A stretch of DNA of 64,000 nucleotides from Acidobacteriota bacterium (GCA_003222895.1 QHXI01000052.1:118109-182108), one strand, 5' to 3'. Shown: positions 25,204-43,195, numbered from the stretch's first letter. Numbers and translations: made by a program. Notes: generated by a model from the sequence alone, not told the origin.

Positions 25204-26169
25204 CTAGACCGCTAGCTTCAATTCCTGCGGGCGGTCAAAGAAATTTTTCCAGGGATGGTTTTTTTTGATTAGCTGCGGAACGTTTTCAATCGTGAAGTCA
25301 GAAATCTTCACGCCTTTCTCAATCTGTTTCCAACTGAGCGGCATGGATACCGTCGCGCCGGGCTTGGCGCGGGCGCTAAAAATTGCCGCGATCGTTTTGC
25401 CGCGCGCGTTCTGCATCGCGTCAACATAAACCTGTTGTTTCTGGCGCTTCGCAAGCGACCGCTGGATCGTCGCGATCTTTGGCGCGCGCCGGGCAACTTC
25501 CGCCGCGAGCGCCTCGGCCACGGCCGCAACCTTTCGATAATCGTTCTTCGGCTTCAGCGGCAAATAGACGTGAATGCCTGACGAGCCGGATGTCTTTGGA
25601 AATGCCGGCAAGCCAACTTCGTCAAAAACCTCTTTGCAGACTAGTGCCACGTCCAGAACATTTTTCCACGGCGCTTGCTTCGGATCTAGATCAAGCATCA
25701 AGTAGTCCGCCTGGTCGAGATGCTTCAAGGTCGAATGCCACGGATGTTGTTCGATGGTGCCGAGGTTTACGAAATGCAACAGCGATGCGACAGTCGTATA
25801 GACGGAATAATTCAGTTCGCGTCCTTCCTGATTTACAAGCTTCACCGTTTTGATGTAGGGAGGCGCGCTCTCGGTGTCCTGCTGAAAGAACATCGGGGCT
25901 TTGATGCCGCGCGGATAACGCTGCAGAATCGCCGGCCGATCTTTTAGAAACGGCATCAGGTGCGGACTGATTTTCAGATAGTAAGAGAGCAGATCAAACT
26001 TCGTCAGTTTCTCATCAGGCCAATAAATTCGATCGAGACTTGTGAGTGAAACGCGCTGGCCTTCGACTTCGATAATGACATCGCCTTTGGGCTTTTTCAG
26101 CGCGAGGAATTCATCCGCCGAAATTGCCTGACCTTCTTTCTGACGCGTGAGCTTGACCTTTGGCGACAT
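25204..26169 (-). CDS. Stand-alone LigD-type primase-polymerase domain protein (NHEJ polymerase)
   Basis: SLTSLDRIYWPDEKLTKFDLLSYY, DRPAILQRYPRGI...FFQQD, LMLDLDP, KTSGSSGIHVYLPL are LigD Pol-domain signatures. Confidence 0.8.
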   Translation of the reverse strand: MSPKVKLTRQKEGQAISADEFLALKKPKGDVIIEVEGQRVSLTSLDRIYWPDEKLTKFDLLSYYLKISPHLMPFLKDRPAILQRYPRGIKAPMFFQQDTESAPPYIKTVKLVNQEGRELNYSVYTTVASLLHFVNLGTIEQHPWHSTLKHLDQADYLMLDLDPKQAPWKNVLDVALVCKEVFDEVGLPAFPKTSGSSGIHVYLPLKPKNDYRKVAAVAEALAAEVARRAPKIATIQRSLAKRQKQQVYVDAMQNARGKTIAAIFSARAKPGATVSMPLSWKQIEKGVKISDFTIENVPQLIKKNHPWKNFFDRPQELKLAV

Positions 26170-26278: not shown

Positions 26279-26307
26279 TTGACCACCCAGACGCGCGTCG
26301 CTATACT
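26279..26307 (+). promoter_or_regulatory. Candidate promoter TTGACC-17 nt-TATACT of the TonB-dependent receptor gene
   Basis: -35 at 26279-26284, exactly 17 nt of spacer, and -10 at 26302-26307. The first ATG (26315) is only 7 nt past the -10. Confidence 0.45.
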
Positions 26308-26310
26308 TCC

Positions 26311-26340
26311 GATTATGAAAATGATTGTCAGAATCATATC
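26311..26340. promoter_or_regulatory. Fur-box-like hexamer array
   Basis: gattatgaaaatgattgtc matches the 19-mer Fur consensus GATAATGATAATCATTATC at 15 of 19 positions. It continues as cagaat catatc. It overlaps the promoter and start of a siderophore-type receptor gene. Confidence 0.5.
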
Positions 26341-28687
26341 ACCGGAGATCGGGCAGGACTTGCGCCTTTTCCTGCAATTTATGGCATTCGTGGCTGTCCT
26401 GGCTGCCTTTGCAGTAACCGGTCAGGCGCAGTCGAGCCAAGGTCCGCTCCGCCGCGGAACTGTTCTCGATCCAAACCGTGCGGCCATAGTCGGCGCTCGC
26501 ATTACGGCTAACGGCAAGACAAGCGCTTCGGCGGTGACCGATGGCAAAGGCGAATTCTCTATCGCCCTGCCGTTCGGTGAATACGTCATGAAGATCGAGG
26601 CTGACGGCTTCGCTTCGGTGACACGTTCGATCGCAATCGGCTCGAACGATGCTGAACCGGTTGAGATTGTCCTGACGCCGGCGTCAGCAACGGCGACGGT
26701 TACGATCATGGGAACCGACGCGTTCGGTTATCGAATCGATGCGATGAGCAGCGCGACGCGAACCCTCACCAACCTTCGCGACGTGCCGCAGTCGATCGCA
26801 GTCGTTAGCAAACAGCAGATCGCCGACCAGTCCATGAAGAGTATTGCCGACGTGGTGAACTATGTTCCCGGCATTACTTCACACCAGGGAGAAAACAATC
26901 GGGACCAACTCGTGATTCGCGGCGTAAGCAGCAGCGCGGATTTCTTTCTTAACGGTATGCGCGACGACGTTCAGTATTATCGAGATCTCTACAATCTCGA
27001 ACGCGTCGAAATCCTGAAAGGACCGAATGCGATGATCTTTGGGCGCGGTGGAGGCGGCGGCGTTGTCAATCGCGTGACCAAGGAAGCGGGGTTTTCAAAG
27101 GTGCGCGAACTTACCTTCGATGGTGGTTCATTTCACACGAAGCGCGTCGCCGGCGACTTCAATCAGCAGCTTAGTCAAAGACTCGCGCTTCGCGTCAATG
27201 GGACGTACGAAAATTCAGGCAGCTTTCGCCGTTTCGTAAATCTCGAACGCTACGGACTCAATCCCACGTTGAGTTTTACGCCGAACGCTGAAACGCGACT
27301 TACAATCGGTTACGAACATTTCCACGACGCGCGTGTCGCCGATCGAGGTCTCCCTTCGTTTCAAGGCAGACCTGCCGACGTGCCAATCGAAACCTTCTTC
27401 GGAAATCCTGGCGACAGTCACGTTCGCGCGCGCGTCGATCGGCTGGCGGGAACATTTCAACGTCAGATCGGGCGTCTGATGATTACGAACCGGACGATGT
27501 TCGGTGCTTACGAACGCAGTTATCAAAACTATGTGCCCGGCGCTGTCAATGCTGCCAAAACGCTGGTGACGCTCACCGCTTACAATAACGCGACGCAGCG
27601 GCGCAATGTCTTCAATCAGACGGATTTCAACTATTCAGTCTCAACTGGGAAGATTAAGCACACGTTGTTATTCGGAAGTGAACTTGGCCGGCAAGCAACG
27701 GACAATTTTCGCAACACGGGCTTTTTCAACAACGTCAGCACGTCGATCCAAATCCCTTTCAGCGATCCGGTGATCTCCACGCCGGTGACGTTTCGTCAGA
27801 ACGCGACCGATGCCAACAATCACGTCACGGCGAACGTTGCCGCCGCACTAGTCCAGGACCAGATCGAACTGTCACGTCGCGTGCAGGTCCTCGCAGGTTT
27901 ACGCTTCGATTATTTCGATCTGCAATTTCACAACAACCGCACTGGTGAAAACCTGCGCCGGATTGATCGATTGATTTCGCCTCGCACGGGAATTGTAGTG
28001 AAGCCGTTCATGCCTCTGTCGGTATACGCGAGCTATGGCGTGTCTTACTTGCCCAGTTCAGGAGATCAATTCTCTTCGCTGACCACGATCACACAACAAG
28101 TTAAGCCTGAGCAATTCACCAACTATGAAATTGGGGCGAAGTGGGATGCGCGCCGCAACCTGACGTTCACGGTGGCGGCGTATCGGCAGGATCGCACGAA
28201 CACCCGCGCGACTGATCCAAACGAGCCGACGCGCATTCTGCAAACGGGCAGTCAACGCACGAATGGCTTTGAAGCTGAAGTGAACGGCAACATCACGCGC
28301 TTGTGGATGATCGCCGGCGGCTATGCGCATCAGGATGCGTTTATCTCGAGCACGACTGCGGCCGCTCGCGCCGGCGCGCGAGTTGCGCTGGTGCCGCACG
28401 ATACTTTTTCGATCTGGAACAAATATCAGATCGTCAACAAACTTTCGTTGGGCGTTGGAGTCATTCATCGCTCAGACATGTTCGCAGCGATCGATGACAC
28501 GGTCACCTTGCCTGGCTACACAAGAATCGACGCGGCGGTTTATGTTCCGTTTAGTGAGAAGTGGAAACTGCAAGCGAACATCGAGAATCTCTTGAACAGG
28601 AAGTACTTCTTGAACGCCGATGGCAACAATAATATCTCTCCGGGTTCCCGGCGCGCGGTGCAAGTTAGTTTGATTACGAGGTTCTGA
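26315..28687 (+). CDS. TonB-dependent siderophore-type receptor with an N-terminal CarboxypepD_reg domain
   Basis: Signal peptide, then CarboxypepD_reg (GTVLDPNRAAIVGARITANG...GEYVMKIEADGF). Plug motifs DVPQSIAVVSKQQIADQ and ERVEILKGPNAMIFGRGGGGGVVN. Barrel ends SLITRF. Start uncertain (26315, 26321, or the later Met of MAFVAVLAAF). Confidence 0.85.
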   Translation: MKMIVRIISPEIGQDLRLFLQFMAFVAVLAAFAVTGQAQSSQGPLRRGTVLDPNRAAIVGARITANGKTSASAVTDGKGEFSIALPFGEYVMKIEADGFASVTRSIAIGSNDAEPVEIVLTPASATATVTIMGTDAFGYRIDAMSSATRTLTNLRDVPQSIAVVSKQQIADQSMKSIADVVNYVPGITSHQGENNRDQLVIRGVSSSADFFLNGMRDDVQYYRDLYNLERVEILKGPNAMIFGRGGGGGVVNRVTKEAGFSKVRELTFDGGSFHTKRVAGDFNQQLSQRLALRVNGTYENSGSFRRFVNLERYGLNPTLSFTPNAETRLTIGYEHFHDARVADRGLPSFQGRPADVPIETFFGNPGDSHVRARVDRLAGTFQRQIGRLMITNRTMFGAYERSYQNYVPGAVNAAKTLVTLTAYNNATQRRNVFNQTDFNYSVSTGKIKHTLLFGSELGRQATDNFRNTGFFNNVSTSIQIPFSDPVISTPVTFRQNATDANNHVTANVAAALVQDQIELSRRVQVLAGLRFDYFDLQFHNNRTGENLRRIDRLISPRTGIVVKPFMPLSVYASYGVSYLPSSGDQFSSLTTITQQVKPEQFTNYEIGAKWDARRNLTFTVAAYRQDRTNTRATDPNEPTRILQTGSQRTNGFEAEVNGNITRLWMIAGGYAHQDAFISSTTAAARAGARVALVPHDTFSIWNKYQIVNKLSLGVGVIHRSDMFAAIDDTVTLPGYTRIDAAVYVPFSEKWKLQANIENLLNRKYFLNADGNNNISPGSRRAVQVSLITRF

Positions 28688-31829: not shown

Positions 31830-32022
31830 CCAGACCGGTCTCAAAGAAATCAATTTGTGACGCTGGCAGGCGCGCCCTGAGGGCTCCCACGGTTTCAGGT
31901 TGTGAATAGATCGGGCGGACGGGTGCAAGGAGAGTCGAAAAGGCAAATGGTCAGTCCAGGTTTTCTGAAAACAGAGAGATAAACTGCGAGATTGCACCTC
32001 TCGTTTTTCTCGCGTGCTGTTG

Positions 32023-32115: not shown

Positions 32116-32577
32116 ATGGCAGAGCCTGACGTCACGTTGGATCGCTTGGAAGATCAGATCGACTGGTACGATCGAAAAAGCAAATACAACCAGCAGATGT
32201 TCAAGCTGATGAAGACTGCAACGATCGTTATCTCGGTGTCGATACCTTTGTTTGCCGCGTTTGCGGCTTACAGATCCATCGAGGGCAAAATGGTGGCGCT
32301 GATTACCGGCTCGGTCGGTGCAACCATCGCCTTGCTCGAGGCGTTCCAGCAACTCAATCAGTATCAGCAACAATGGATTACATACCGGTCCACTGCGGAA
32401 GGTTTGAAGCACGAGAAATTCTTGTTCCTGGCATCGGCTGGGCCATACGCCGCCGCGGAATATCCCAAGAAGCTGCTGGCTGAACGAGTCGAATCGCTGG
32501 TTTCACAGGAACATGCAAAGTGGGCTTCGACGCAGGAGCAAACAGGCAAGAGTCCCACTAAGCCAGAGCAAAAATAG
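32116..32577 (+). CDS. DUF4231 / SLATT-domain two-TM protein (153 aa)
   Basis: LEDQIDWYDRKSKYNQQMFKL, then two hydrophobic helices (TATIVISVSIPLFAAFAAY; VALITGSVGATIALLEAF). Then WITYRSTAEGLKHEKFLFLASAGPY and ERVESLVSQEHAKW, the recalled DUF4231 signature. RBS GAGAGG lies 6 nt before ATG 32116, and the ORF-track start 32014 lies upstream of the promoter motif. Confidence 0.8.
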   Translation: MAEPDVTLDRLEDQIDWYDRKSKYNQQMFKLMKTATIVISVSIPLFAAFAAYRSIEGKMVALITGSVGATIALLEAFQQLNQYQQQWITYRSTAEGLKHEKFLFLASAGPYAAAEYPKKLLAERVESLVSQEHAKWASTQEQTGKSPTKPEQK

Positions 32578-32693
32578 AGTTCGTAAGCGATTAAGGCGAT
32601 CGCAGATTATTTAGGCAAGGCAAACAAATAGTTTGCGTTGCTTCCTCAACCCGCATTTCAAGAATGGTGCGACTCTTTCCGGGAGCAAGACGC

Positions 32694-32933
32694 ATGACCT
32701 CCACCGCGAATTTCTAGAATCAACTCTTCATTAGTTATGCGCACATCGACCATCGCTACTTCACCGGCGGCGGGTAGCGTTTCGACGAACACCGGCGGGT
32801 TTGCCGGATTTGCTTGCTTATGAATTTTACGAACGGAACGAAGCTCTGGCGGAACCTGTCAAATTCGTATCTTATCGACGGCCGTGATTTTCTGGAAAGA
32901 GTGAAAAGCATCTACGCAATTTATGTGGGCTAA
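32694..32933 (+). pseudogene. Decayed, truncated TIR-domain ORF (80 codons, two in-frame TAG stops)
   Basis: A single frame reads MTSTANF*NQLFISYAHIDHRYFTGGG*RFDEHRRVCRICLLMNFTNGTKLWRNLSNSYLIDGRDFLERVKSIYAIYVG*. FISYAHID plus (G)W..F....L and LWRx...L.G.DF resemble the N-terminal half of bacterial TIR_2-type domains. The second TAG sits where Trp (TGG) is expected. Confidence 0.45.
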
Positions 32934-32983
32934 CGAATCTAAAACGCAAACCTACTAATAATCTAGTCAGCAAGAATTCTTAC

Positions 32984-33006
32984 TGCTATACTCCCGCCGC
33001 GCTCGC
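32984..33006 (+). promoter_or_regulatory. Extended -10 promoter-like motif TGCTATACTCCCGCCGCGCTCGC upstream of the TM-TIR gene
   Basis: TGnTATACT lies 60 nt upstream of ATG 33052. It is a near-copy of the motif at 32023-32045. Confidence 0.4.
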
Positions 33007-33051
33007 GCTTAGATCTCCGCTACCTGAACCAGCACAGGGGTCGAAGTCGCC

Positions 33052-36024
33052 ATGTCAACGGTTACCTCCAACCAAATCCGCAAGTCGGCGCGTACTCCAT
33101 CACGGCCCGGCGAAAAGGATTCTAGAAAACCGCTTCTCATAGGCGTATGTCTCCTTGGTTTGTCGGTGACGCTCCTGGTTTACGCAATCACCTATCGACC
33201 GAAAGCAAAACAATTCATCTTTGCAGGGCGAATTGAGCGGATTCCTCCGACCGGCGTGGTCGAAATCAAACAATCCCCTCAAACACCAACGAAAGACACC
33301 TCTCCATCGGTCCGGGCACCCAACCGAACTCAATACCGGCATCATGCAATAAAGAGCCGATCGGCCAATCCTGAAGCAATTGAACCGCGAACGCTGAATC
33401 GAGCCGAACCATGTCTTGCCATACGCGAACTGGCGAAGAGTGTTGACACTCGTGACATGCGTCCAGTCGGCGATCCGTCACCGCTGCGCAGCGCCGCGCC
33501 CCAAACCTCGCCCACTGCGCAGAAGAAGAACGTGATTCGCAGGTTCTTTGCCTGGCTGGCCGGACTCTTTTCCCGGAAAAAGTTGGGCGAAAACGATCCA
33601 CCAAATCATCAGCCGCCTAAGATTTCGCTCGGTCTGTCACGCAGACAAATTTTCGCGCGGGAGCAGTGCCCCGACAAGATGCAACCCGATCCGTCTTGTG
33701 TGGCGGAAACGCGATTGGAAGTCTTTGCACGGGCAACCGATTCGGATGGTGAGTTATCGATAAAACCAGCCGCTCAAATCGGAAAGATCATAACGCTGAG
33801 TAAGGAACATTTTACCTGGGATCTAACCGGTGTTGCTCCGGGAGTTTATTCATTTACCGTCACTGCGTCTGATGGCAAGTCTGAGCTGGCGACAAAGTCT
33901 GTGAGAGTGACGGTGTCAGCTTGCGAATGCATTGCGGCGCCTCAGCCCACACCTCAGCCGACGCCTGCCGCGATTTGCCCCGAAATCAGTTTATCTGGAC
34001 CGGACACCGTAAAGCCCGGCGAAAGCTTTGCAGTTTCAGCCGCTGTCATGCGTGGGTCGTCAGAGACTCGCCATACGTACGACTGGATAGTCTCCGAAGG
34101 CGAAATTGTGTCCGGGCAAGGGACGTCCAGGGTTGTCATTAGAACACCTCCGCGCGCGACGACTGTTAGAGTGAGGGTCACATTACGTGAACAGCCGGCT
34201 TGTCCTGCTGACGCATTTTGGAGGATTGGGGCTACCGCGGGTCCAACGACTTCAGTTTCGGGAACTATCCAGGACGCTGCTGGTGCTGTGATTTCTGGCG
34301 CTACCATCATTCTGACGAGTGCTGAGGGCCGGTCTTACCGAACCGTCAGCGGAGCCAATGGTGATTATGAGATTTCAGGATTGTCTCCGGGCCGTTATGA
34401 CGTGCGGATTGAGGTCGCGAATTTTAAGACGCAGACTACGACCATAGAAGCGCGCATGATCCAGCAGTCGCCTTTCAACTTTGCTCTTGAAATCGGTGGC
34501 ATCGGTGAGCCGGTGACGATAACAGCGGAATCCTCTCCTTCTCCTTCTCCTACACCTTCGGCCACCGCTTCGCCTACTCCACTGAAGATCCTGAAGGAAC
34601 AGGATCAAATCAAGGTCGATTATCCCGAACGATTCCTCCAAAAGTCGGAAGGCGAGATCACATTCGAGATGGAACGAGTTCTCAGGGAGGTGATCGCTTC
34701 AGAAACTAACATTAACGGCAAAGTCGAAATCGTGGACAAACCTCGGCCGATACCTGGCGCGACCCCAGACACAACTCTCAATGTCGCGTTCGGCGAGCAA
34801 TACGAGGCTTACGCGAACGTGACACTAATTCCAAACGGGCTAACCGTGGTGTCGACGCCCGCGAGCGTAGAACATTCGCTGAAAGAGAAACTGGTTAGGT
34901 GGGCTTGGCGCTTGAGACCAACTGACGCTAGCGCGACCGAAGCGTCATTCAAATTCCAGTTGGACATCGTTTGGAAGGCCAAGGTTGTCGGATCGCTGCC
35001 GGATGTCGTTCGCCGCGACGTGTGGCCCAATCAACCGATAATCGTGCCGATCGGGCCGCCGCCCTCAGTCAAAGTCGCAACCTATAGCTCGCCGGTGCTG
35101 GCCGCTGGTGGCTTGCTCACGCTTGGGTTCGGCGCCAGACGTCGCCGACGCCTCGTCCAAGGTGCCGCGGAAGATGCGCCAGCCGAAATCGAGGAGGAGA
35201 GCGTAACTGCAAGCGTGTTTGCCCCGAGCCAGGTCGCAACTGGTAATAGCTTTCTCGTGCAGGTTTTTGCTCACCTGGGGGAACAGGCAGAATCGCTTGA
35301 GAGGCTGGCGCGGGAAGCTGACGATGATGCGCGCAGACGAGCAAGTGCAGAACTACAAAGGCCCGTCAAACGCGGAGTTGTTCTGACTTTCAACTTAACG
35401 ATGAAGGGACTGGACATTGATGAGCCGTCGCAATCGTGCACCTGGCGCGGCGCGCCGGCGATCGTTCAATTCGGAGTCACCGTGCCCCCTGACTTCACCG
35501 CACAAGATCTCTTGGGATTGGTAACTGTCTGTGAGGAAACGGTGCCGATTGGGCATCTGCGATTCAAACTCAAAATTGTCGATGGCGCTGCAACTACCGC
35601 GAACACTCCACAATACATTGGCACTGCCAGGCGATATAGTCAGGCTTTCATATCATACGCCTCACAAGATCGCGCAGAAGTGCTAAAGCGAGTCCAGATG
35701 TTGAACTCTTTGAAGTTGAAGTTCTTTCAGGATTTGTTGACGCTCGAGCCGGGTGACGAGTGGGAAAAGTTGATTTACCAATACCTTGATGCAAGCGATG
35801 TAGTTTTTTTGTTTTGGTCAAAGGCAGCCAGTGAGTCTTCGTGGGTGCGAAAAGAGATTCAATACGCCATGCAGCGAAAACATAACCTGGAAGAAGAGGC
35901 ACCCGAAATTGTGCCCGTGATTATCGAGGGACCACCGCCGGCGCCAGCCCCTGCGGAACTCGCGTTTCTTCATTTCAACGATCGGTTTATGTACTTCATC
36001 AGCGCCACCGATGCCGGTGACTAA
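33052..36024 (+). CDS. Membrane-spanning receptor-like protein with a C-terminal TIR domain (990 aa)
   Basis: TM1 at aa 27-47 and a low-complexity stalk. Two Ig-like modules at about aa 215-385 (TWDLTGVAPGVYSFTVTASDG; YDWIVSEGEIVSGQGTSRVVI). CarboxypepD_reg at aa 401-466 (VSGTIQDAAGAVISGATIILTSAEGRSYRTVSGANGDYEISGLSPGRYDV). P/S linker and an unknown domain at aa 511-670. TM2 at aa 676-696, followed by RRRRR. Beta-rich domain at aa 716-845. TIR at aa 863-965 (QAFISYASQD...DVVFLFWS...SSWVRKEIQYA). Confidence 0.8.
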   Translation: MSTVTSNQIRKSARTPSRPGEKDSRKPLLIGVCLLGLSVTLLVYAITYRPKAKQFIFAGRIERIPPTGVVEIKQSPQTPTKDTSPSVRAPNRTQYRHHAIKSRSANPEAIEPRTLNRAEPCLAIRELAKSVDTRDMRPVGDPSPLRSAAPQTSPTAQKKNVIRRFFAWLAGLFSRKKLGENDPPNHQPPKISLGLSRRQIFAREQCPDKMQPDPSCVAETRLEVFARATDSDGELSIKPAAQIGKIITLSKEHFTWDLTGVAPGVYSFTVTASDGKSELATKSVRVTVSACECIAAPQPTPQPTPAAICPEISLSGPDTVKPGESFAVSAAVMRGSSETRHTYDWIVSEGEIVSGQGTSRVVIRTPPRATTVRVRVTLREQPACPADAFWRIGATAGPTTSVSGTIQDAAGAVISGATIILTSAEGRSYRTVSGANGDYEISGLSPGRYDVRIEVANFKTQTTTIEARMIQQSPFNFALEIGGIGEPVTITAESSPSPSPTPSATASPTPLKILKEQDQIKVDYPERFLQKSEGEITFEMERVLREVIASETNINGKVEIVDKPRPIPGATPDTTLNVAFGEQYEAYANVTLIPNGLTVVSTPASVEHSLKEKLVRWAWRLRPTDASATEASFKFQLDIVWKAKVVGSLPDVVRRDVWPNQPIIVPIGPPPSVKVATYSSPVLAAGGLLTLGFGARRRRRLVQGAAEDAPAEIEEESVTASVFAPSQVATGNSFLVQVFAHLGEQAESLERLAREADDDARRRASAELQRPVKRGVVLTFNLTMKGLDIDEPSQSCTWRGAPAIVQFGVTVPPDFTAQDLLGLVTVCEETVPIGHLRFKLKIVDGAATTANTPQYIGTARRYSQAFISYASQDRAEVLKRVQMLNSLKLKFFQDLLTLEPGDEWEKLIYQYLDASDVVFLFWSKAASESSWVRKEIQYAMQRKHNLEEEAPEIVPVIIEGPPPAPAPAELAFLHFNDRFMYFISATDAGD

Positions 36025-36068
36025 GTTACTTATGAGCATTCCCTGAAGGTTCTTTCCGTCGTTGCGGT

Positions 36069-36995
36069 TCAGTTGTCCCGATTGACAACGAATTCGACCA
36101 TGGCGGCCAGCAGTTCCGTTGAGCGGTTGATCTTTTTCAGCGCCTCACAAGAATATCGATAGGCGGATTTGATTCGCTCGTTCGTGCTCGCGATTCCAAA
36201 GAGTGCTGGAAAAGTGGCCTTGCTTGCCCGCGCATCTTTGCCCGGGGTCTTTCCTAGATCTTCCGCAGTCGCCGTGACATCCAAAAGATCGTCCGTGATT
36301 TGAAACAACAAACCGAGGTTGGTGGCGTATTCCGTGATCGCCGCGAGTTCATCTTCGTTTGCGCCGGCGAACAGCGCGCCGCAACGGGCAGCGGCGCGAA
36401 TCAAAGCGCCGGTCTTCAGGCGATGAATGCGCTCGAGCTCGTCGCCGTTCACTTCGCGTGATTCAGCATTGAGATCAAGCTCTTGGCCCGCCACCATTCC
36501 TTCCGGCGTTCCCGACGCGCGCGAAACTTCGGAAATCAATTGAACGCGCAAGGCAGCATCCAGCTTTTCATCTTCCGCAATCGTCTGAAACGCGAGAGCT
36601 TGCAACGCATCCCCGGCGAGGATCGCCGTTGCTTCGTCAAACTTCACATGGCAAGTCGCTCGGCCGCGTCGCAGATCGTCATCATCCATCGACGGCAGAT
36701 CGTCGTGAATCAGCGAATAGGTGTGAATCATTTCCAGCGCGCAGGCCGTGCGCAATAGATCATCTGCGCGCGCGTCGAACGTCTCGCCCACGGCCAGCAG
36801 CAACGCGGGGCGAAATCGTTTTCCGCCCGCGAAGACACTCCAGCGAATCGCTTCATGCACGCGTTGCGGTTGTTCGGATGCTTGCGGGATCAGGCGATCG
36901 AGTTCCGAATCAATCAGAGTGCGGCAGGATGCGAGAAATTCCCGCGCGTAATTTGCGTCGGAATTTATTACCACAGAGGACACAGAGGAAATCAA
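36069..36995 (-). CDS. ispA: Polyprenyl (farnesyl/geranylgeranyl) diphosphate synthase
   Basis: GGKRFRPALL, first Asp-rich motif LIHDDLPSMDDDDLRRG, second FQITDDLLD. It lies downstream of xseB as in the classical xseB-ispA arrangement. Start uncertain (TTG 36995, or GTG 36983 or 36974). Confidence 0.85.
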   Translation of the reverse strand: MISSVSSVVINSDANYAREFLASCRTLIDSELDRLIPQASEQPQRVHEAIRWSVFAGGKRFRPALLLAVGETFDARADDLLRTACALEMIHTYSLIHDDLPSMDDDDLRRGRATCHVKFDEATAILAGDALQALAFQTIAEDEKLDAALRVQLISEVSRASGTPEGMVAGQELDLNAESREVNGDELERIHRLKTGALIRAAARCGALFAGANEDELAAITEYATNLGLLFQITDDLLDVTATAEDLGKTPGKDARASKATFPALFGIASTNERIKSAYRYSCEALKKINRSTELLAAMVEFVVNRDN

Positions 36996-39421: not shown

Positions 39422-42400
39422 TCACTGAAATCCCGGCGCCAGCAGATTCGTCATCTTCGCGGGATTCTTGATCATTTGTTTTGTCATCCACATGTCGGTC
39501 TTAGCCAGCAATTCACGTCCGCGATCGCCGCCAACCAACTCGCCCAAACGCCGGCGCGCAACGGTCGCGTACAGCTGCATGTGGGAGGTTTCAAAATCCT
39601 TCACGGCCTTTTCCAAAAGGTTTATTGCGCTCGCCTCGTCACCGCGTCTATGAGCGACTGCAGCGCGAACAAGCGTGGCCATTGGATTCGCATAGGCCGT
39701 GTTCTCACGCTCGATCTTACCAGCTAGTTTTTCCGCGAGTCGCAGCCGCGGTTGAGTTATTTTTCCGGTCGCCGTAGCGAGAGCTAACCGCGCGCGCAGT
39801 TGCGTCGCGTCGATGCGCAGTCCCTGAATGCGGCGCAAGAGAGACTTCTCGAGCGGCCTGAGTTGAGTTTCGACGTGTCGCCAGGCGACTTCGTAATCAC
39901 CCGTATAAAGCTCGATCTGGGCCAACGCCACCAGCGACGTGTAGTGCTGCAAATGAAATCCGCGCCGCGGCCAGGTGGTCATCGCGGCAATCACTTCATC
40001 GCGCGCGCGATTTGGATCATCCGCGGCGAGCCAAATCGTATTCAAGCGCGTGCGCAAATCCGTTGCGGCAAACAGATTTCCCTGGTCCAGCGCGGCAGAA
40101 AGAAGTTGCGGTACGCGTCGCGATACTTCAACCATGTCGCCGAGGTAAAGCAGCGATGTCAGCATAAAACGATTTGCGATCGTCAACTCCCAGGTGACGC
40201 CCGTACATTCATCGCGCAGAATTTCCGCGGCCCGTTCACAGAGCTCGGCGGCCTGCTTCCAATTTCCAAGCAGATACGCACTCAGTCCGCGCGCCCAAAT
40301 CGCTAGACCAAGTGCGTGCGGATTGCCCGCCCGGCGGGCCAGCGCATCGGTCTTCTCCATGAGCCGGGCAACGTGTTCTTGTTCGGCGCCGCCCCGCGCG
40401 GCGGCCTGACTTGCTTCGAACGCCATCGCGCGCGCGACGCGCGAAATTTCTCCGGCGCGCAACGCCAACAGTAAATGCAAACTCTGAAAGTCAGCGCCGC
40501 GAATAAGATCGACAACGCCCAAACCTGCGGCGACGGCCCAGCACGTATCGATACGCAGCAGCTCGGCTTCAGGAATTGATGCCGCGTCACGTTCGGTAAA
40601 ACTCAGGCCGCGCACGCGAATCCAAAGTCGCCGCAGAATCAACGATAAAAGCGCCCGCTTCGGACCTCGAGCCAACTTCAATCCCACGCTTTCCAAAACG
40701 ACGCGAAAGACTTCTAGTCCTTCATCGATGTGGCCGCCCATCAGCAATTGGGCGCCGGCGCGCTGTCGCAATTCCAAGGCCCGACGCGAGGAAGTCGTTT
40801 TCGCGGCGTCGAGAAATTCGTGCGCAGCTTGAGCGGGGCGGCCCGCGTTCGCCAACGCATCGCCCAATCCAATCTTCAACTCAACCAGGTTGGGCGCATC
40901 GGGTTTCAATTCGATGGCGCGACGAAAGTAAAGCGCGGCCCGATCGAATGCCAGCGCGGTCGCAGCTTTCTTCGCTGCTGCTTCGGCATGCAAAACCGCG
41001 CGCTCATTCTCGCCCGCGCCGAGATAGTCCTGATACAAGCTTTCCGGATCGTCGAGGCCGCGGGCTTCAATCGCTTGCGCCAACCGCCGATGAATCTGTT
41101 TTCGTTCGCTTTCGTCCAGCAGCGCCGCCAAAGTTTCGCCGATGCGATCGTGGTACATCTCAACGCCATATTCGGCGCCGCTGCTACGCACAAACTGCGC
41201 CACGCGCAGGGTTGTCAACAATGAAAGCGAATCGCCGGAAACGCCGGCTGCCCCAAACGCAACCGCTTCGTTAACCGGACGTCGCGCGACTGCGAGTACG
41301 TTCAGGAATTGTCGGGCGCCGGCCGATAACTGTGTGATTCGTTCCTCGAGCATGGTTGCCAACGAGATCCCCGCCGTCGCAGCGCCCTCGTTCATCATTC
41401 CATAGTGCGTCAGCTGCTCGATCAGGAAAGGACTGCCACCGGCTTCGTTGACGATCGATTCGATGAATAGTTCGCCGGATAATTTCGCCGCCGCGAACAG
41501 CGATCGCGTCAGCTCGCGCGCTTCACCGCCCGGCAATGGACCAATGAAGATCTCACGACACGTATCAGTTCCGGCCTGCACCAGCAGTTGTTTCAGGAAG
41601 GGCTTTTCTTCGATATCTTCGCTGCGAAAACTGGCAATCAGTAAAAGCGGCGGCGCGTCAGGCGGCCGCAGCAAATCTTCGAGCAGAAAGATGCTGTCCG
41701 CATCGGCCCATTGCAGATCGTCGATATAGATTACCAGCGGCTGTCGCTTCGCAATGCGCGTCAACAATTCACGCAACGCGCCGAATGCTTTGCGTCGCAG
41801 CGTAAATAAATCGATCGACTCCGGATGACGAGCGCGCGCTTCAAAGATCGCGTCGACCTGGAGCATCACCGGAAACACCCGCGATAGAGCAGCTCGATTG
41901 CGCGGCATGAAAGCTTCAGCCTTCGCGCGACGCAAAGTTGCGAGATGCTTGCTCAGGCTATCGACGACTCCATCCAGAGCCTTGTACAGAACCGATTCGC
42001 GTTCGTAGCAACGGCCTTGTAACACCACCGCGTTGCGCGTCTTCTCTTTCAGTCCATCCAGAAACGTTCGCGCCAAAGTCGTCTTGCCCATACCCGAAAC
42101 GCCATGCAGCAAAACGGTCACGCACTGGCCTTCGCGCGTCGCGCGAAACGCGTCGTGTAATTCAGCCAGTTGCCGCTCACGCCCAATGAACGAAACTTCC
42201 GACGCGAATTGCAGTGCCGATGCAGCTGATCGATGGGCACCAAGTGCGCGCAGCACTTCGCGTCCGGTGGGTCGAACTTCCGGATCGCGACGCAGTAGCC
42301 GGATGCAAAGATCATTCAGATCGCGTGGCACTTGCGGATTGATTTCCCGCGGCTGGATCGGATCGCGCGTTTGTTTGCGCAACATCACTTCGAAGAATCT

Positions 42401-43195
42401 GCCCCGAAACGGCAGGCGTCCAGTCAATGCCTGATAAAGAATCACGCCTACGCTGTACCAATCACTCGCTTTCGAAATCGGAGATTGCGCGCCTTGCTCG
42501 GGCGACATGTAATCGGGAGTTCCCGCCAGCAGCGTCTCGGGCGAATCGGGATTGATGTCTTCAACCAAACCAAAGTCGAGCAGCACCACGCGGCCTTCAT
42601 CGGTCACGAGCACGTTCGAAGGTTTGATGTCGCGATGAAGCTTACCCAACTCGTGCAGGCGATGAACGCCTTCGGCAAGCTGACGCAGAGCCGCTCGCAG
42701 GCGCGGCTCGTCCAATTGATAACTTGCAGCCTGTGCGGCTTCGTCATCATTGATCGTCGCGTCTGTTGAATCGAACGAAAAACTCAAACTGTCGAAGATT
42801 TCGGTTTCAGCTTCTGAGTCGGTAGCCCTATCCGACCGCGCGCGCTGCAACGTATCGTCGAGATCAATTGACGGCACATCGATTGTGTCGGGCCGAACGT
42901 ACTGAATGAAAGTTACGCCCTTCACCAGTTCCATCGTGAAGAACCAGCTTTGCCCTTCGGACATCAATTCATAGAGCGTGACGAGATTTGGATGCGACAC
43001 ATCGACCAGCGTGCGAAACTCTCTCTTGAACCGATAGATGTGCGCGGCTTCTGAAAGTGTCAGAGTCTTCAGCGCCACGACTTTGTCCATCTTGCGATCG
43101 TGCGCTTCATACACGACACCCGTGCCGCCTGTGCCCAGGCGACGCAGCAAGGTGAAGCGTTCAGTGCCGGCAAATTCTCTGGCGGGCTTTACCAC
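39422..43195 (-). CDS. Ser/Thr protein kinase fused to an AAA (STAND-like) ATPase and a long TPR-like helical region (1257 aa)
   Basis: Kinase motifs GTGGTGVVYEA, VALK, HRDIKPSNVL, DFG, GTPDYMSPE. Walker A LLHGVSGMGKTTL and Walker B LVIYIDDLQWAD. About 650 aa of helical repeats follow. Confidence 0.85.
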   Translation of the reverse strand: MVKPAREFAGTERFTLLRRLGTGGTGVVYEAHDRKMDKVVALKTLTLSEAAHIYRFKREFRTLVDVSHPNLVTLYELMSEGQSWFFTMELVKGVTFIQYVRPDTIDVPSIDLDDTLQRARSDRATDSEAETEIFDSLSFSFDSTDATINDDEAAQAASYQLDEPRLRAALRQLAEGVHRLHELGKLHRDIKPSNVLVTDEGRVVLLDFGLVEDINPDSPETLLAGTPDYMSPEQGAQSPISKASDWYSVGVILYQALTGRLPFRGRFFEVMLRKQTRDPIQPREINPQVPRDLNDLCIRLLRRDPEVRPTGREVLRALGAHRSAASALQFASEVSFIGRERQLAELHDAFRATREGQCVTVLLHGVSGMGKTTLARTFLDGLKEKTRNAVVLQGRCYERESVLYKALDGVVDSLSKHLATLRRAKAEAFMPRNRAALSRVFPVMLQVDAIFEARARHPESIDLFTLRRKAFGALRELLTRIAKRQPLVIYIDDLQWADADSIFLLEDLLRPPDAPPLLLIASFRSEDIEEKPFLKQLLVQAGTDTCREIFIGPLPGGEARELTRSLFAAAKLSGELFIESIVNEAGGSPFLIEQLTHYGMMNEGAATAGISLATMLEERITQLSAGARQFLNVLAVARRPVNEAVAFGAAGVSGDSLSLLTTLRVAQFVRSSGAEYGVEMYHDRIGETLAALLDESERKQIHRRLAQAIEARGLDDPESLYQDYLGAGENERAVLHAEAAAKKAATALAFDRAALYFRRAIELKPDAPNLVELKIGLGDALANAGRPAQAAHEFLDAAKTTSSRRALELRQRAGAQLLMGGHIDEGLEVFRVVLESVGLKLARGPKRALLSLILRRLWIRVRGLSFTERDAASIPEAELLRIDTCWAVAAGLGVVDLIRGADFQSLHLLLALRAGEISRVARAMAFEASQAAARGGAEQEHVARLMEKTDALARRAGNPHALGLAIWARGLSAYLLGNWKQAAELCERAAEILRDECTGVTWELTIANRFMLTSLLYLGDMVEVSRRVPQLLSAALDQGNLFAATDLRTRLNTIWLAADDPNRARDEVIAAMTTWPRRGFHLQHYTSLVALAQIELYTGDYEVAWRHVETQLRPLEKSLLRRIQGLRIDATQLRARLALATATGKITQPRLRLAEKLAGKIERENTAYANPMATLVRAAVAHRRGDEASAINLLEKAVKDFETSHMQLYATVARRRLGELVGGDRGRELLAKTDMWMTKQMIKNPAKMTNLLAPGFQ

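Follow-up and report, generated by a model that had tools for sequence, protein, structure and literature searches.

Can a bacterial TIR protein be wired to a sensor lying outside the cytoplasm, in the manner of the animal IL-1R/TLR receptors? This question is raised by a 64,000-nt stretch of DNA from an Acidobacteriota bacterium (GCA_003222895.1 QHXI01000052.1:118109-182108; referred to here as the window, within which all feature coordinates are counted), in which an earlier sequence-only reading had proposed a gene for a protein that joins an extracytoplasmic Ig/CarboxypepD_reg part to a cytoplasmic TIR domain. The ORF, which starts with ATG and encodes 990 aa, is present in the window and is real; the NCBI MAG protein DMF72_06025, annotated as 'hypothetical protein [Acidobacteria bacterium]', has the identical sequence. 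The host is a soil Acidobacterium.

Pfam searches and a full-length AlphaFold2 model bore out the proposed domain map in almost every detail (Table 1). A basic tail of 24 aa precedes TM1, and the stalk that follows, disordered over aa 52-160 in the full-length model, holds a conserved amphipathic helix (RRFFAWLAGLF, aa 162-172), which is kept in the homologues P0002, P0003, P0004 and L008, while in L004 the whole stalk region is replaced by a ~170-aa stalk of (PTPxPTS)n repeats. The two postulated Ig-like modules were modelled as confident β domains (aa 190-295 and 311-394), although the Pfam matches in this region were restricted to sub-threshold Ig/PKD hits (aa 221-290 and 310-376); in total, six ectodomain Cys residues are conserved (206, 216, 291, 293, 309 and 384). 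The CarboxypepD_reg assignment was well above the cut-off (PF13620, aa 401-480, E 2.3e-19, 70 bits versus a cut-off of 32.3), and this domain is followed by a disordered P/S/T linker (aa 483-510). The region formerly listed as an unknown domain (aa 511-670) adopts a conserved all-β fold in the AlphaFold2 model (aa 517-667) and is designated here the membrane-proximal domain (MPD); it matched no Pfam or PDB sequence family, a profile search of the PDB likewise giving none, and has 67 homologous representatives at E<=1e-3. Beyond TM2, the β-rich domain anticipated at aa 716-845 was modelled as a β-sandwich (aa 718-843, pLDDT ~95) with one inserted helix, for which Foldseek returned generic Ig-like, CARDB and ZU5/UPA folds. 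The C-terminal domain belongs to TIR_2 (PF13676, aa 866-976, E 6.5e-18, 65.8 bits versus a cut-off of 28).

Table 1. Features of the receptor-like TIR locus, with positions counted within the window
Feature	Position	Strand	Evidence
SLATT_1/DUF4231 2-TM gene	32116..32577	+	DUF4231 8.9e-25 (87.6 bits); SLATT_1 3.9e-15 (56.4 bits)
Relic, 5' end of former resident TIR gene	32721..32753	+	Six-frame reading; tblastn versus L025/L027 TIR N-termini
3.3-kb cassette common with L001, 82% nucleotide identity	32852..36099	+	blastn
3' stub of the 336-aa gene upstream of the L001 orthologue	32868..32933	+	tblastn, 71% identity, last 21 residues
Sigma-70-like promoter match inside cassette, TAGTCA-17-TATACT with TG	32964..32992	+	Consensus scan
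Receptor-like TIR gene, 990 aa	33052..36024	+	ORF; NCBI identity; homologues
TM1 signal anchor, aa 25-47	33124..33192	+	Kyte-Doolittle 2.57; AlphaFold2 helix aa 25-47; conserved in orthologues
Disordered basic Pro/Ser-rich stalk, aa 48-189	33193..33618	+	AlphaFold2 pLDDT <50
Two Ig/PKD-like β domains, aa 190-295 and 311-394	33619..34233	+	AlphaFold2 pLDDT 82-95; weak He_PIG/Big_9/PKD matches
CarboxypepD_reg, aa 400-480	34249..34491	+	PF13620; pLDDT 90-96
Membrane-proximal all-β domain (MPD), aa 517-667	34600..35052	+	AlphaFold2 pLDDT 90-98
TM2 (aa 671-694) and RRRRR stop-transfer cluster (aa 696-700)	35062..35151	+	AlphaFold2 helix aa 671-694; conserved across orthologues
Cytoplasmic β-sandwich, aa 718-843	35203..35580	+	AlphaFold2 pLDDT 95-98
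TIR domain, aa 864-976	35641..35979	+	TIR_2 match; TIR fold matches

Both membrane segments of the sequence-only reading were recovered as conserved helices, and the RRRRR cluster behind the second is conserved as well. With a Kyte-Doolittle value of 1.3 over 19 residues, TM2 is hydrophobic only to a marginal degree, and its pLDDT is low (64-78). K/R residues number one before and five after TM2; around TM1 (seven before, five after) their distribution is not decisive. The topology was therefore settled from homologues. In two shorter homologues the MPD lies directly behind an export signal, this being a lipoprotein signal in P0022 (MRLILIAIAAFSLAALTGC) and a signal peptide in P0015. A hydrophobic segment was found ~10-20 residues after the MPD in most of the ~60 matching proteins mapped, including those without a TIR domain, and this segment, together with the poly-Arg cluster, was kept in all orthologues checked. 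The FFAWLAGLF patch within the stalk, nine hydrophobic residues between RR and RKK, had been named as a potential TM that would shift the Ig/CarboxypepD_reg part into the cytoplasm; it was modelled as a helix of only 11 residues and is therefore too short to span the membrane. Since the window also encodes a TonB-dependent outer-membrane receptor, the cell is diderm and the ~630-aa region between the TM segments faces the periplasm. It is thus strongly supported that the protein forms a 2-TM hairpin with both termini in the cytoplasm and a ~630-aa periplasmic region, and equally that this region is joined through TM2 to a β-sandwich-TIR cassette in the cytoplasm carrying an NADase-type Glu. 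The extracytoplasmic middle part and cytoplasmic TIR first proposed were upheld by the homologue signal peptides and the MPD-TM arrangement, whereas the positive-inside argument was not decisive at TM1 and the placement at the cell surface had to be corrected to the periplasm. Four paralogues (L011, L013, L017 and L019) are literal type I proteins, in which a signal peptide is followed by PKD/CarboxypepD_reg modules, a single strong TM segment (Kyte-Doolittle 2.1-3.1), the β-sandwich and the TIR domain.

The TIR domain was modelled with a pLDDT of ~90 as a flavodoxin-like α/β fold, superposable on TIR domains of solved structure, Foldseek matches including SPARTA TIR-APAZ (8qlp_E), MAL (5uzb_A) and AbTir (7uxu_A; rmsd 1.4 Å, 25% identity), in agreement with the fold first proposed. 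As that reading had also observed, the glutamate of the TIR motif is kept: E935 (codon at 35854-35856) lies in the motif SESSWVRKE, which aligns with ALESEWVKKE of 9m0n_A, and is invariant in 92 aligned homologues (column E266 of an alignment fragment starting at aa 670). We take E935 to be the counterpart of SARM1 E642 and AbTir E208. Alignments of both sequence and structure group the TIR part with enzymatic TIRs of bacteria, and the invariance of the glutamate and its surrounding motif argues for enzymatic constraint; the conservation of E935 is read here as catalytic potential, not as proof of NADase activity. The best matches of the domain in sequence and structure come from soluble bacterial TIR NADases and sensors (AbTir, ThsB, SPARTA TIR-APAZ, TIR-STING, TIR-SAVED and the TIR-NLR 9m0n), and the TIR fold is common to them and the window protein, as is the conserved glutamate motif W-x-x-x-E. 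The window protein differs from these in its membrane location, since all of them reside in the cytoplasm, where they react to cues from within the cell (nucleic acids, cyclic nucleotides or phage proteins, for example).

Full-length homologues were found at 79%, 51%, 46% and 41% identity and below, which is evidence for a real fusion. The MPD-TM-β-sandwich-TIR architecture is represented by at least 27 clusters at 50% identity, mostly from Acidobacteriota (Pyrinomonadaceae/Blastocatellia), 13 of which also carry Ig and/or CarboxypepD_reg modules; among 13 genome loci of the family, 12 are from Acidobacteriota. These proteins are accordingly no rare curiosities, and the source labels of named homologues (nearly all of them shorter and module-only) read just 'TIR domain-containing' or 'hypothetical'. 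A literature search for a bacterial ectodomain-TM-TIR receptor yielded no published description, and the receptor-like TIR proteins represent a real, small family without prior study. The family is modular. The β-sandwich-TIR module has 384 homologues at E<=1e-3 (45-71% identity among the 120 listed), the cytoplasmic β-sandwich always accompanying a TIR of this type, and is fused to FHA, cNMP-binding, cyclase, TPR, bPH, CHAT and protein kinase domains; the MPD-TM unit, in turn, occurs in fusions with CHAT and with DUF3892 as well. The β-sandwich-TIR module is a widespread output cassette.

TIR enzymes, among them SARM1, AbTir, SPARTA and ThsB, need self-association to form their active site. 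The reading that we prefer, to which we assign a probability of about one half, is that the protein is a self-contained inner-membrane receptor in which periplasmic sensing leads to TIR clustering and NAD+ cleavage. The periplasmic modules would bind or detect a cue on the envelope side, for instance a component of a phage or attacker, or a change in cell wall or glycans, upon which the protein would cluster in the plane of the membrane, bringing the cytoplasmic β-sandwich-TIR units together; the assembled TIRs would then cleave NAD+, resulting either in NAD+ depletion and growth arrest or in a signal for unlinked receivers. No conserved partner gene was found across 20 other β-sandwich-TIR loci, and the family is therefore taken to be a self-contained sensor-effector. 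A setting of conflict is indicated by the variable slot that the cassette occupies, described below, and by the nSTAND1-WD40 neighbours present in L001, L004 and L006. Several observations count against this reading: Ig/PKD/CarboxypepD_reg modules serve as generic spacers as well as binders, TM2 has the weak hydrophobicity and low pLDDT given above, the PADLOC matches were all weak and TIR-only, and most genes surrounding the locus are housekeeping genes.

A rival reading starts from the locus itself, as the gene lies downstream of a SLATT_1/DUF4231 gene that the sequence-only reading had overlooked, together with the history of the site. The mechanical ORF of this neighbour begins at 32014, but homologues favour the ATG at 32116; more than 560 relatives in metagenomes match residues 1-153 counted from that ATG. 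In Thoeris type VII, a ThsB TIR protein and a ThsH SLATT effector have been experimentally validated as a pair that uses a cADPR signal (preprint 10.64898/2025.12.03.692087), and the window shows the same adjacency of TIR and SLATT_1/DUF4231 genes. By analogy, the window TIR, once activated, could produce a nucleotide of the cADPR type, in response to which the SLATT protein next to it would open as a membrane pore and cause abortive infection, an envelope-sensing pair that we regard as possible but rather unlikely. Of 80 loci of SLATT relatives, at least 42 have a TIR ORF directly adjoining the SLATT gene, and the same-backbone slot holds other TIR genes (L025 and L027). Furthermore, nine distinct SLATT-adjacent TIRs are themselves TIR-TM-periplasmic-domain proteins, indicating that membrane-spanning sensors do pair with the SLATT family.

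The SLATT gene is constant, whereas the TIR slot beside it varies in content: sister strains have TIR-DUF4062 together with nSTAND1-GH25 there, or else TIR-TM-WD40, or an empty slot. The relic of the former TIR gene reads QLFISYAHIDH, with in-frame stops on both sides (compare L028, DLFISYAHIDNKP), and the stub of the 336-aa gene entered together with the cassette. L023 and L024 share the backbone but lack a wider segment (32569-36154; blastn), and in them the SLATT gene stands alone. It speaks against a pair that SLATT can stand alone in this way, that the cassette replaced the resident TIR gene, truncating it, and that the pairing is not conserved in the family of the cassette's TIR protein. 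The 474-nt gap between the two same-strand genes contains the gene relics, terminator-like hairpins and a promoter-like site of the receptor-like gene's own, the latter being a consensus match only, in a number not above chance expectation. Moreover, a β-sandwich/MPD-type TIR protein occurs in none of the 80 SLATT loci, and a SLATT gene in none of the 20 other β-sandwich-TIR loci. While the described ThsB has not been reported to span the membrane, the window TIR is part of a 990-aa receptor-like protein and is of another subtype, sufficiently distant from SLATT-associated TIRs for phmmer to miss L025 and L027, so that the signal chemistry may differ. Since the cassette took the place of the TIR partner of the SLATT gene, a relay of the Thoeris type VII kind is possible at this locus, but is not the default.

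An adaptor role, in which the β-sandwich-TIR unit would act mainly as a homotypic dock recruiting soluble TIR-DUF4062 proteins and their nSTAND1 NTPase partners to the membrane, in the way that adaptor TIRs are recruited by TLR TIRs, is improbable. A TIR_2/DUF4062 gene with nSTAND1-WD40 adjoins both the L001 orthologue and the 713-aa family member of L004, and a TIR-DUF4062/nSTAND1 pair fills the SLATT slot in L025. Yet the association is seen in just two of ~21 loci and such a pair is absent from the window, while the catalytic glutamate and motif, invariant across the 92 sequences, again speak for an enzyme. We consider it quite improbable, too, that the protein is a non-immune receptor, responding to envelope stress, cell-cell or kin recognition or polysaccharides and producing NAD+-derived second messengers in normal physiology. 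The fusion of the cassette to input domains of ordinary signalling (FHA, cNMP-binding, cyclase and kinase) would suit such a role, as would the many housekeeping neighbours and the frequent glycan binding of CarboxypepD_reg and PKD domains. Against it stand the patchy, cassette-like distribution with presence/absence between close strains, the co-occurrence with STAND/WD40, CHAT, toxin-antitoxin and SLATT genes, and the fact that the characterised bacterial TIR enzymes known to us are all conflict-related. Finally, an artefact, whereby misassembly or read-through joined a C-terminally sorted surface protein (PEP-CTERM/MYXO-CTERM-like) to a separate TIR gene, could be suspected from the resemblance of TM2 and RRRRR to sorting tags (TIGR03901 MYXO-CTERM, weak match at aa 681-700, E 0.18) and from two relatives, L003 and L008, that appear split into two ORFs, but is in effect refuted, given how many independent homologues are full-length, the architecture being uninterrupted in independent assemblies from 79% down to ~30% identity, and the split points of L003 and L008 being different, with both frame changes within continuous homology and a long-read-style contig name for L008. 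A C-terminal sorting signal was likewise rejected, as TIGR03901 scored 12.2 bits versus a cut-off of 20 and the segment is followed by 290 further residues.

Like the animal IL-1R/TLR receptors, the window protein combines a β-sandwich (Ig-like) sensor outside the cytoplasm, a membrane helix and a C-terminal cytoplasmic TIR, and the proximity-induced TIR assembly of the animal proteins is presumed to apply here too. The order ectodomain-TM-cytoplasmic TIR first proposed stands; the type I topology of the animal receptors, single-pass with a cleaved signal peptide, is seen in the four paralogues but not in the hairpin. No LRR or Ig-family Pfam match was obtained for the ectodomain, which yielded only weak PKD/He_PIG/Big_9 matches and CarboxypepD_reg; its Ig-like modules belong to the PKD/CarboxypepD_reg kind found in bacteria and face the periplasm. 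An extra β-sandwich separates membrane and TIR, and the TIR, a bacterial TIR_2 with the NADase Glu, probably acts as an enzyme and not as a dock for adaptors. The likeness is one of convergent domain shuffling, not of orthology.

Bacterial two-TM sensors (histidine kinases, chemoreceptors, membrane GGDEF proteins and Ser/Thr kinases) share the order TM1-periplasmic part-TM2-cytoplasmic output, as well as an output cassette that can be swapped among inputs. The window protein differs from them in its output, where a TIR takes the position of the kinase, cyclase or MCP domain, in having no HAMP, PAS or other linker, and in its periplasmic chain of β-sandwiches in place of a PDC/Cache or 4-helix-bundle domain. 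Kiwa KwaA, Zorya ZorAB and SNIPE are inner-membrane proteins with a periplasmic part, for which phage detection at the envelope and transmission to a cytoplasmic effector have been proposed (reviewed in PMC13434031). The window protein, whose defence role is putative, shares this placement but is unrelated in sequence and fold, and a TIR output occurs in none of those systems.

The characterised bacterial TIR proteins known to us sense infection from inside the cell. We tentatively suggest, at somewhat less than even odds, that soil bacteria hold an unrecognised class of outside-in TIR receptors, in which a periplasmic event would lead to cytoplasmic TIR assembly and, through NAD+-derived products, to killing or arrest of the cell, either directly or via SLATT pores. 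With similar reserve, this class may comprise three topologies, namely the hairpin of the window, type I (L011 and L017) and the type II SLATT-adjacent TIR-TM-WD40, TIR-TM-PD40 and TIR-TM-FGE-sulfatase proteins. If so, prokaryotic TIR signalling could be driven from outside the cytoplasm. Thoeris-like immunity would then have a branch that senses the envelope, and Kiwa, Zorya and SNIPE, the envelope-sensing defences recognised in recent work, would be joined by a system with a TIR output; transmembrane TIR signalling in the style of TLR/IL-1R would have its first counterpart in prokaryotes. The central unanswered step of TLR/IL-1R biology is how TIR assembly follows from an event in the ectodomain, and these proteins would offer a tractable bacterial model for this step across one membrane helix. 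Natural chimeras for testing TIR assembly would be provided by the β-sandwich-TIR unit placed behind FHA, cNMP-binding, kinase or periplasmic inputs and, as a second set, by the MPD and TM segment placed before TIR, CHAT or DUF3892.

The ORF at 33052-36024 (+) was found to be genuine and to encode a 990 aa receptor-like protein identical to the NCBI MAG protein DMF72_06025 [Acidobacteria bacterium], which is labelled only as 'hypothetical protein'. A full-length AlphaFold2 model, based on an alignment containing 51 homologues, matched the domain map proposed by the sequence-only reading nearly residue by residue (see table). When aa 670-990 were modelled separately (92 sequences), pLDDT values of ~97 and ~90 were obtained for the β-sandwich and the TIR, respectively, and Foldseek matched this model to the solved TIR domains of SPARTA TIR-APAZ, the MAL filament and AbTir (rmsd 1.4 Å), confirming the proposed identity of the C-terminal domain. 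The glutamate highlighted in that domain, Glu935, likewise held up, being unchanged across all 92 of the 92 aligned sequences.

Features of the receptor-like protein, its locus and SLATT-adjacent TIR-TM proteins
Feature	Position	Strand	Source or remark
TM1 helix	aa 25-47		AlphaFold2
Disorder	aa 52-160		AlphaFold2
Short helix	aa 162-172		AlphaFold2
Two β domains	aa 190-295, aa 311-394		AlphaFold2
Ig/PKD-like regions	aa 221-290, aa 310-376		Pfam, sub-threshold
CarboxypepD_reg	aa 400-480		AlphaFold2
CarboxypepD_reg	aa 401-480		Pfam, 70 bits, above threshold
Disordered linker	aa 483-510		AlphaFold2
All-β membrane-proximal domain (MPD)	aa 517-667		AlphaFold2, pLDDT 90-98
24-residue helix (TM2)	aa 671-694		AlphaFold2
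β-sandwich	aa 718-843		AlphaFold2
TIR	aa 864-976		AlphaFold2
TIR_2	aa 866-976		Pfam, 65.8 bits, above threshold
TIR relic QLFISYAHIDH (first TIR β-strand)	32721-32753	+	In-frame stops on both sides
3' end (~21 codons) of the L001 gene preceding the orthologue	32868-32933	+	
SLATT-adjacent TIR-TM proteins	L027:5562-6749, L029:6028-8976, L081:5415-7004, L096:5423-6733, L098:988-2376, L061:981-2372, L095, L097, L068		

The remaining domains were less readily assigned. The MPD had no Pfam match at E≤1, and a 24-sequence profile of this domain had no match among PDB sequences. A Foldseek search with the whole model returned generic β-sandwich chains only, with matches reported without query ranges, and the sole lead on MPD identity is a partial likeness to tandem PKD-like repeats in P0152. 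For the cytoplasmic β-sandwich, only generic Ig-like, CARDB and ZU5/UPA folds were retrieved (target-normalised TM-score ≤~0.6).

TM1 is strongly hydrophobic (Kyte-Doolittle 2.57) and is flanked by basic residues on both sides, while TM2 is marginal (Kyte-Doolittle 1.3). Hydropathy by itself is insufficient to assign the topology, which was settled on the evidence of relatives. Searched exhaustively with phmmer, aa 505-715 yielded 67 cluster representatives; the same query against a word-indexed database produced a single new fragment, making the exhaustive search of representatives necessary. P0022 carries a textbook lipoprotein signal (MRLILIAIAAFSLAALTGC) ahead of the MPD, and P0015 a signal peptide, indicating that this domain is exported. 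Most of the ~60 matched proteins that could be mapped, with or without a TIR, carry a hydrophobic segment within ~10-20 residues past the MPD, and many possess an N-terminal signal or anchor ahead of it. Furthermore, the TM2 hydrophobic segment and its Arg/Lys cluster are retained in all orthologues examined, and the ectodomain contains six conserved Cys residues. In place of the Ig and CarboxypepD_reg modules, the L004 protein has a (PTPxPTS)n stalk of ~170 aa, of a type typical of exported proteins. Based on these relatives (MPD export, TM2 with its Arg/Lys cluster, Cys residues and the L004 stalk), the comparison is taken to show a topology with the N-terminus inside, followed by TM1, ~630 aa outside, TM2 and ~290 aa inside.

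A third TM formed by the FFAWLAGLF patch, which would flip this topology, was rejected: its nine hydrophobic residues (preceded by RR and followed by RKK) and its modelled helix of 11 residues are too short to span a bilayer, the patch is missing from L004 and the MPD is exported in short homologues. A gene elsewhere in the window (26279-28687, +) specifies an outer-membrane receptor of the TonB-dependent type that begins with a CarboxypepD_reg domain. This shows the host to be diderm, and 'outside' therefore denotes the periplasm. Accordingly, the earlier placement of the Ig/CarboxypepD_reg part beyond the cytoplasm was upheld by the relatives, while its placement at the cell surface was not.

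The ectodomain-TM-TIR fusion is genuine. Full-length relatives include P0002 (JGI, 79% identity), P0003 (Logan, 41%) and ~12 further representatives at roughly 30-50% identity, and one such relative (L010) is located on a 1.5-Mb Acidobacteriota contig. In view of these many independent full-length homologues, and of a MYXO-CTERM match that was under the cut-off, an artefactual gene fusion and a reading of TM2 as a sorting signal were both rejected. Two relatives (L003:8001-10960 and L008:3293-6512) are each split into two ORFs, with homology running on through the frame change; their break points differ in position, the L008 contig bears a long-read-style name and both are read as sequencing errors or pseudogenes. 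At L004:4257-6398, the true ORF encodes 713 aa, the start assigned to the corresponding protein P0013 lying 248 codons downstream of the real one, and the PT-repeat region had been given a spurious antisense ORF.

Among representatives, the MPD-TM-β-sandwich-TIR arrangement was observed in at least 27 clusters at 50% identity, 13 of which also contain Ig and/or CarboxypepD_reg modules. A one-genome-per-species scan identified 13 loci; a Planctomycetaceae bacterium accounts for one, and the other 12 belong to Acidobacteriota, chiefly to Pyrinomonadaceae and Blastocatellia. Some of these loci encode additional receptor-like proteins that lack the MPD and are literal type I proteins: those of L011, L013 and L019 consist of a signal peptide, CarboxypepD_reg, a strong TM and β-sandwich-TIR, and that of L017 of a signal peptide, two PKD domains, a TM (Kyte-Doolittle 3.1) and β-sandwich-TIR. 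The cytoplasmic β-sandwich-TIR unit is far more widespread, with 384 matches; the 120 listed show 45-71% identity, nearly all over >80% of 291 aa, and derive, by source name, from Acidobacteria, Cyanobacteria, Bacteroidota and Planctomycetota. This unit was also found behind FHA, cNMP-binding, adenylate/guanylate cyclase, TPR, bPH, CHAT and protein kinase domains, and it also occurs by itself, closely preceded by an FHA gene. Conversely, MPD-TM precedes a CHAT caspase-like protease in P0189, which has RHS repeats outside the membrane, and DUF3892 in P0153 and P0156. Such a pattern marks the input and output modules as interchangeable.

At the nucleotide level, the window resembles the orthologue locus L001 only over 32852-36099, a 3.3-kb cassette. 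In L023 and L024, which share the same backbone (glucoamylase, SLATT and polyprenyl synthase), ~115 nt replace window positions 32569-36154, and the receptor gene is an insertion. The same SLATT-polyprenyl synthase slot holds a TIR-TM-WD40 protein in L027, and a TIR_2/DUF4062 gene and an nSTAND1-GH25 gene in L025; the latter (L025:7064-9964), adjoining the TIR_2/DUF4062 gene, joins an nSTAND1 NTPase to a C-terminal GH25 muramidase, which is unusual as a sensor or effector combination. This interval is thus described as a strain-variable slot, empty in L023 and L024 and filled in L025, L027 and the window. Two relics remain between the SLATT and receptor genes (see table), indicating that a resident TIR gene was replaced by the cassette. 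The first can be compared with the SLATT-adjacent TIR of L028 (DLFISYAHIDNKP); the second is a stub of a 336-aa gene (L001:2058-3068) that was carried in with the cassette. No convincing target-site duplications or terminal inverted repeats were found flanking the cassette.

The gene upstream of the receptor gene (32116-32577, +) encodes a two-TM SLATT_1/DUF4231 protein belonging to a very common soil-metagenome family (>560 relatives). A directly adjacent TIR ORF was present at no fewer than 42 of the 80 sampled loci of SLATT relatives (L023-L102), many of the remainder having flanks too short to judge. Nine distinct partners (see table) comprise an N-terminal TIR, a strong TM and, at the C-terminus, WD40, PD40 or FGE-sulfatase. 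The TIR side of the TM is enriched in K/R in most of these, which makes them type II membrane-spanning proteins; alongside the receptor-like family they form a second group of TIR sensors that cross the membrane, the sensor part being presumed periplasmic. TIR plus SLATT constitutes type VII Thoeris, with canonical cADPR as the signal (December 2025 preprint, 10.64898/2025.12.03.692087), and this preprint makes no mention of membrane-spanning TIR sensors.

Architecture, fold, conserved Glu, modularity, cassette mobility and SLATT-TIR association are established; the architecture of the window protein is solid, and it is the function that we infer throughout. An all-against-all comparison of neighbours across 21 loci revealed no conserved operon partner of β-sandwich-TIR genes, and because the receptor family lacks such a partner, a self-contained sensor-effector is the favoured reading, with a probability of about one half. 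The periplasmic chain would register an envelope-side cue, which would shift the clustering state of the protein and bring the cytoplasmic β-sandwich-TIR units together. Self-association is required by TIR enzymes, as established for SARM1, AbTir, SPARTA and ThsB, and the assembled TIRs would then cleave NAD+.

The main rival in the window genome, tentative at best, is a Thoeris-like relay from the TIR to the SLATT protein. The receptor gene occupies exactly the TIR slot; however, its β-sandwich TIR type was otherwise never seen with SLATT, and it arrived by destroying the native TIR partner of the SLATT gene. PADLOC returned weak matches only for the receptor-like protein, to the TIR part alone, and no match for the SLATT protein. 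Clearly less likely is an adaptor role towards TIR-DUF4062/nSTAND1: TIR_2/DUF4062 and nSTAND1-WD40 genes adjoin the β-sandwich-TIR gene in L001 (L001:6653-11805) and L004 (L004:1-4061), and L006 has a caspase-nSTAND1-WD40 gene in the vicinity of its own (L006:7475-11533), none of these being a partner conserved across the 21 loci. A non-immune signalling role is slightly more doubtful again, and an artefact is essentially excluded. Elsewhere in the window, a gene 3.4 kb from the TIR gene (39422-43195, -) encodes a 1257 aa protein with a Ser/Thr kinase, an AAA_16 STAND-like ATPase and TPR repeats, the kinase part matching the PADLOC models mad6 and PD-T4-6, and a LigD primase-polymerase gene is located at 25204-26169 (-).

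The likeness to TLR/IL-1R proposed by the sequence-only reading stands as a layout, and not as family membership: the window protein lacks LRRs and animal-type Ig domains, has two TM segments, a periplasmic sensor and an additional juxtamembrane β-sandwich, and its TIR would be of the enzymatic bacterial type. Compared with bacterial receptors, it exhibits the classic TM1-sensor-TM2-output order, the output being a TIR. A 2026 review of envelope-sensing defences (PMC13434031) covers Kiwa, Zorya and SNIPE, none with a TIR, and receptor-like TIR proteins of this kind are likewise not described in two extensive comparative-genomic surveys of conflict systems in bacteria. The literature searched (full text, with incomplete coverage) contained no description of bacterial ectodomain-TM-TIR receptors, in agreement with the earlier claim of novelty, which needs amending in that databases already contain dozens of them under generic names. 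The architecture of the window protein would surprise many in the field.
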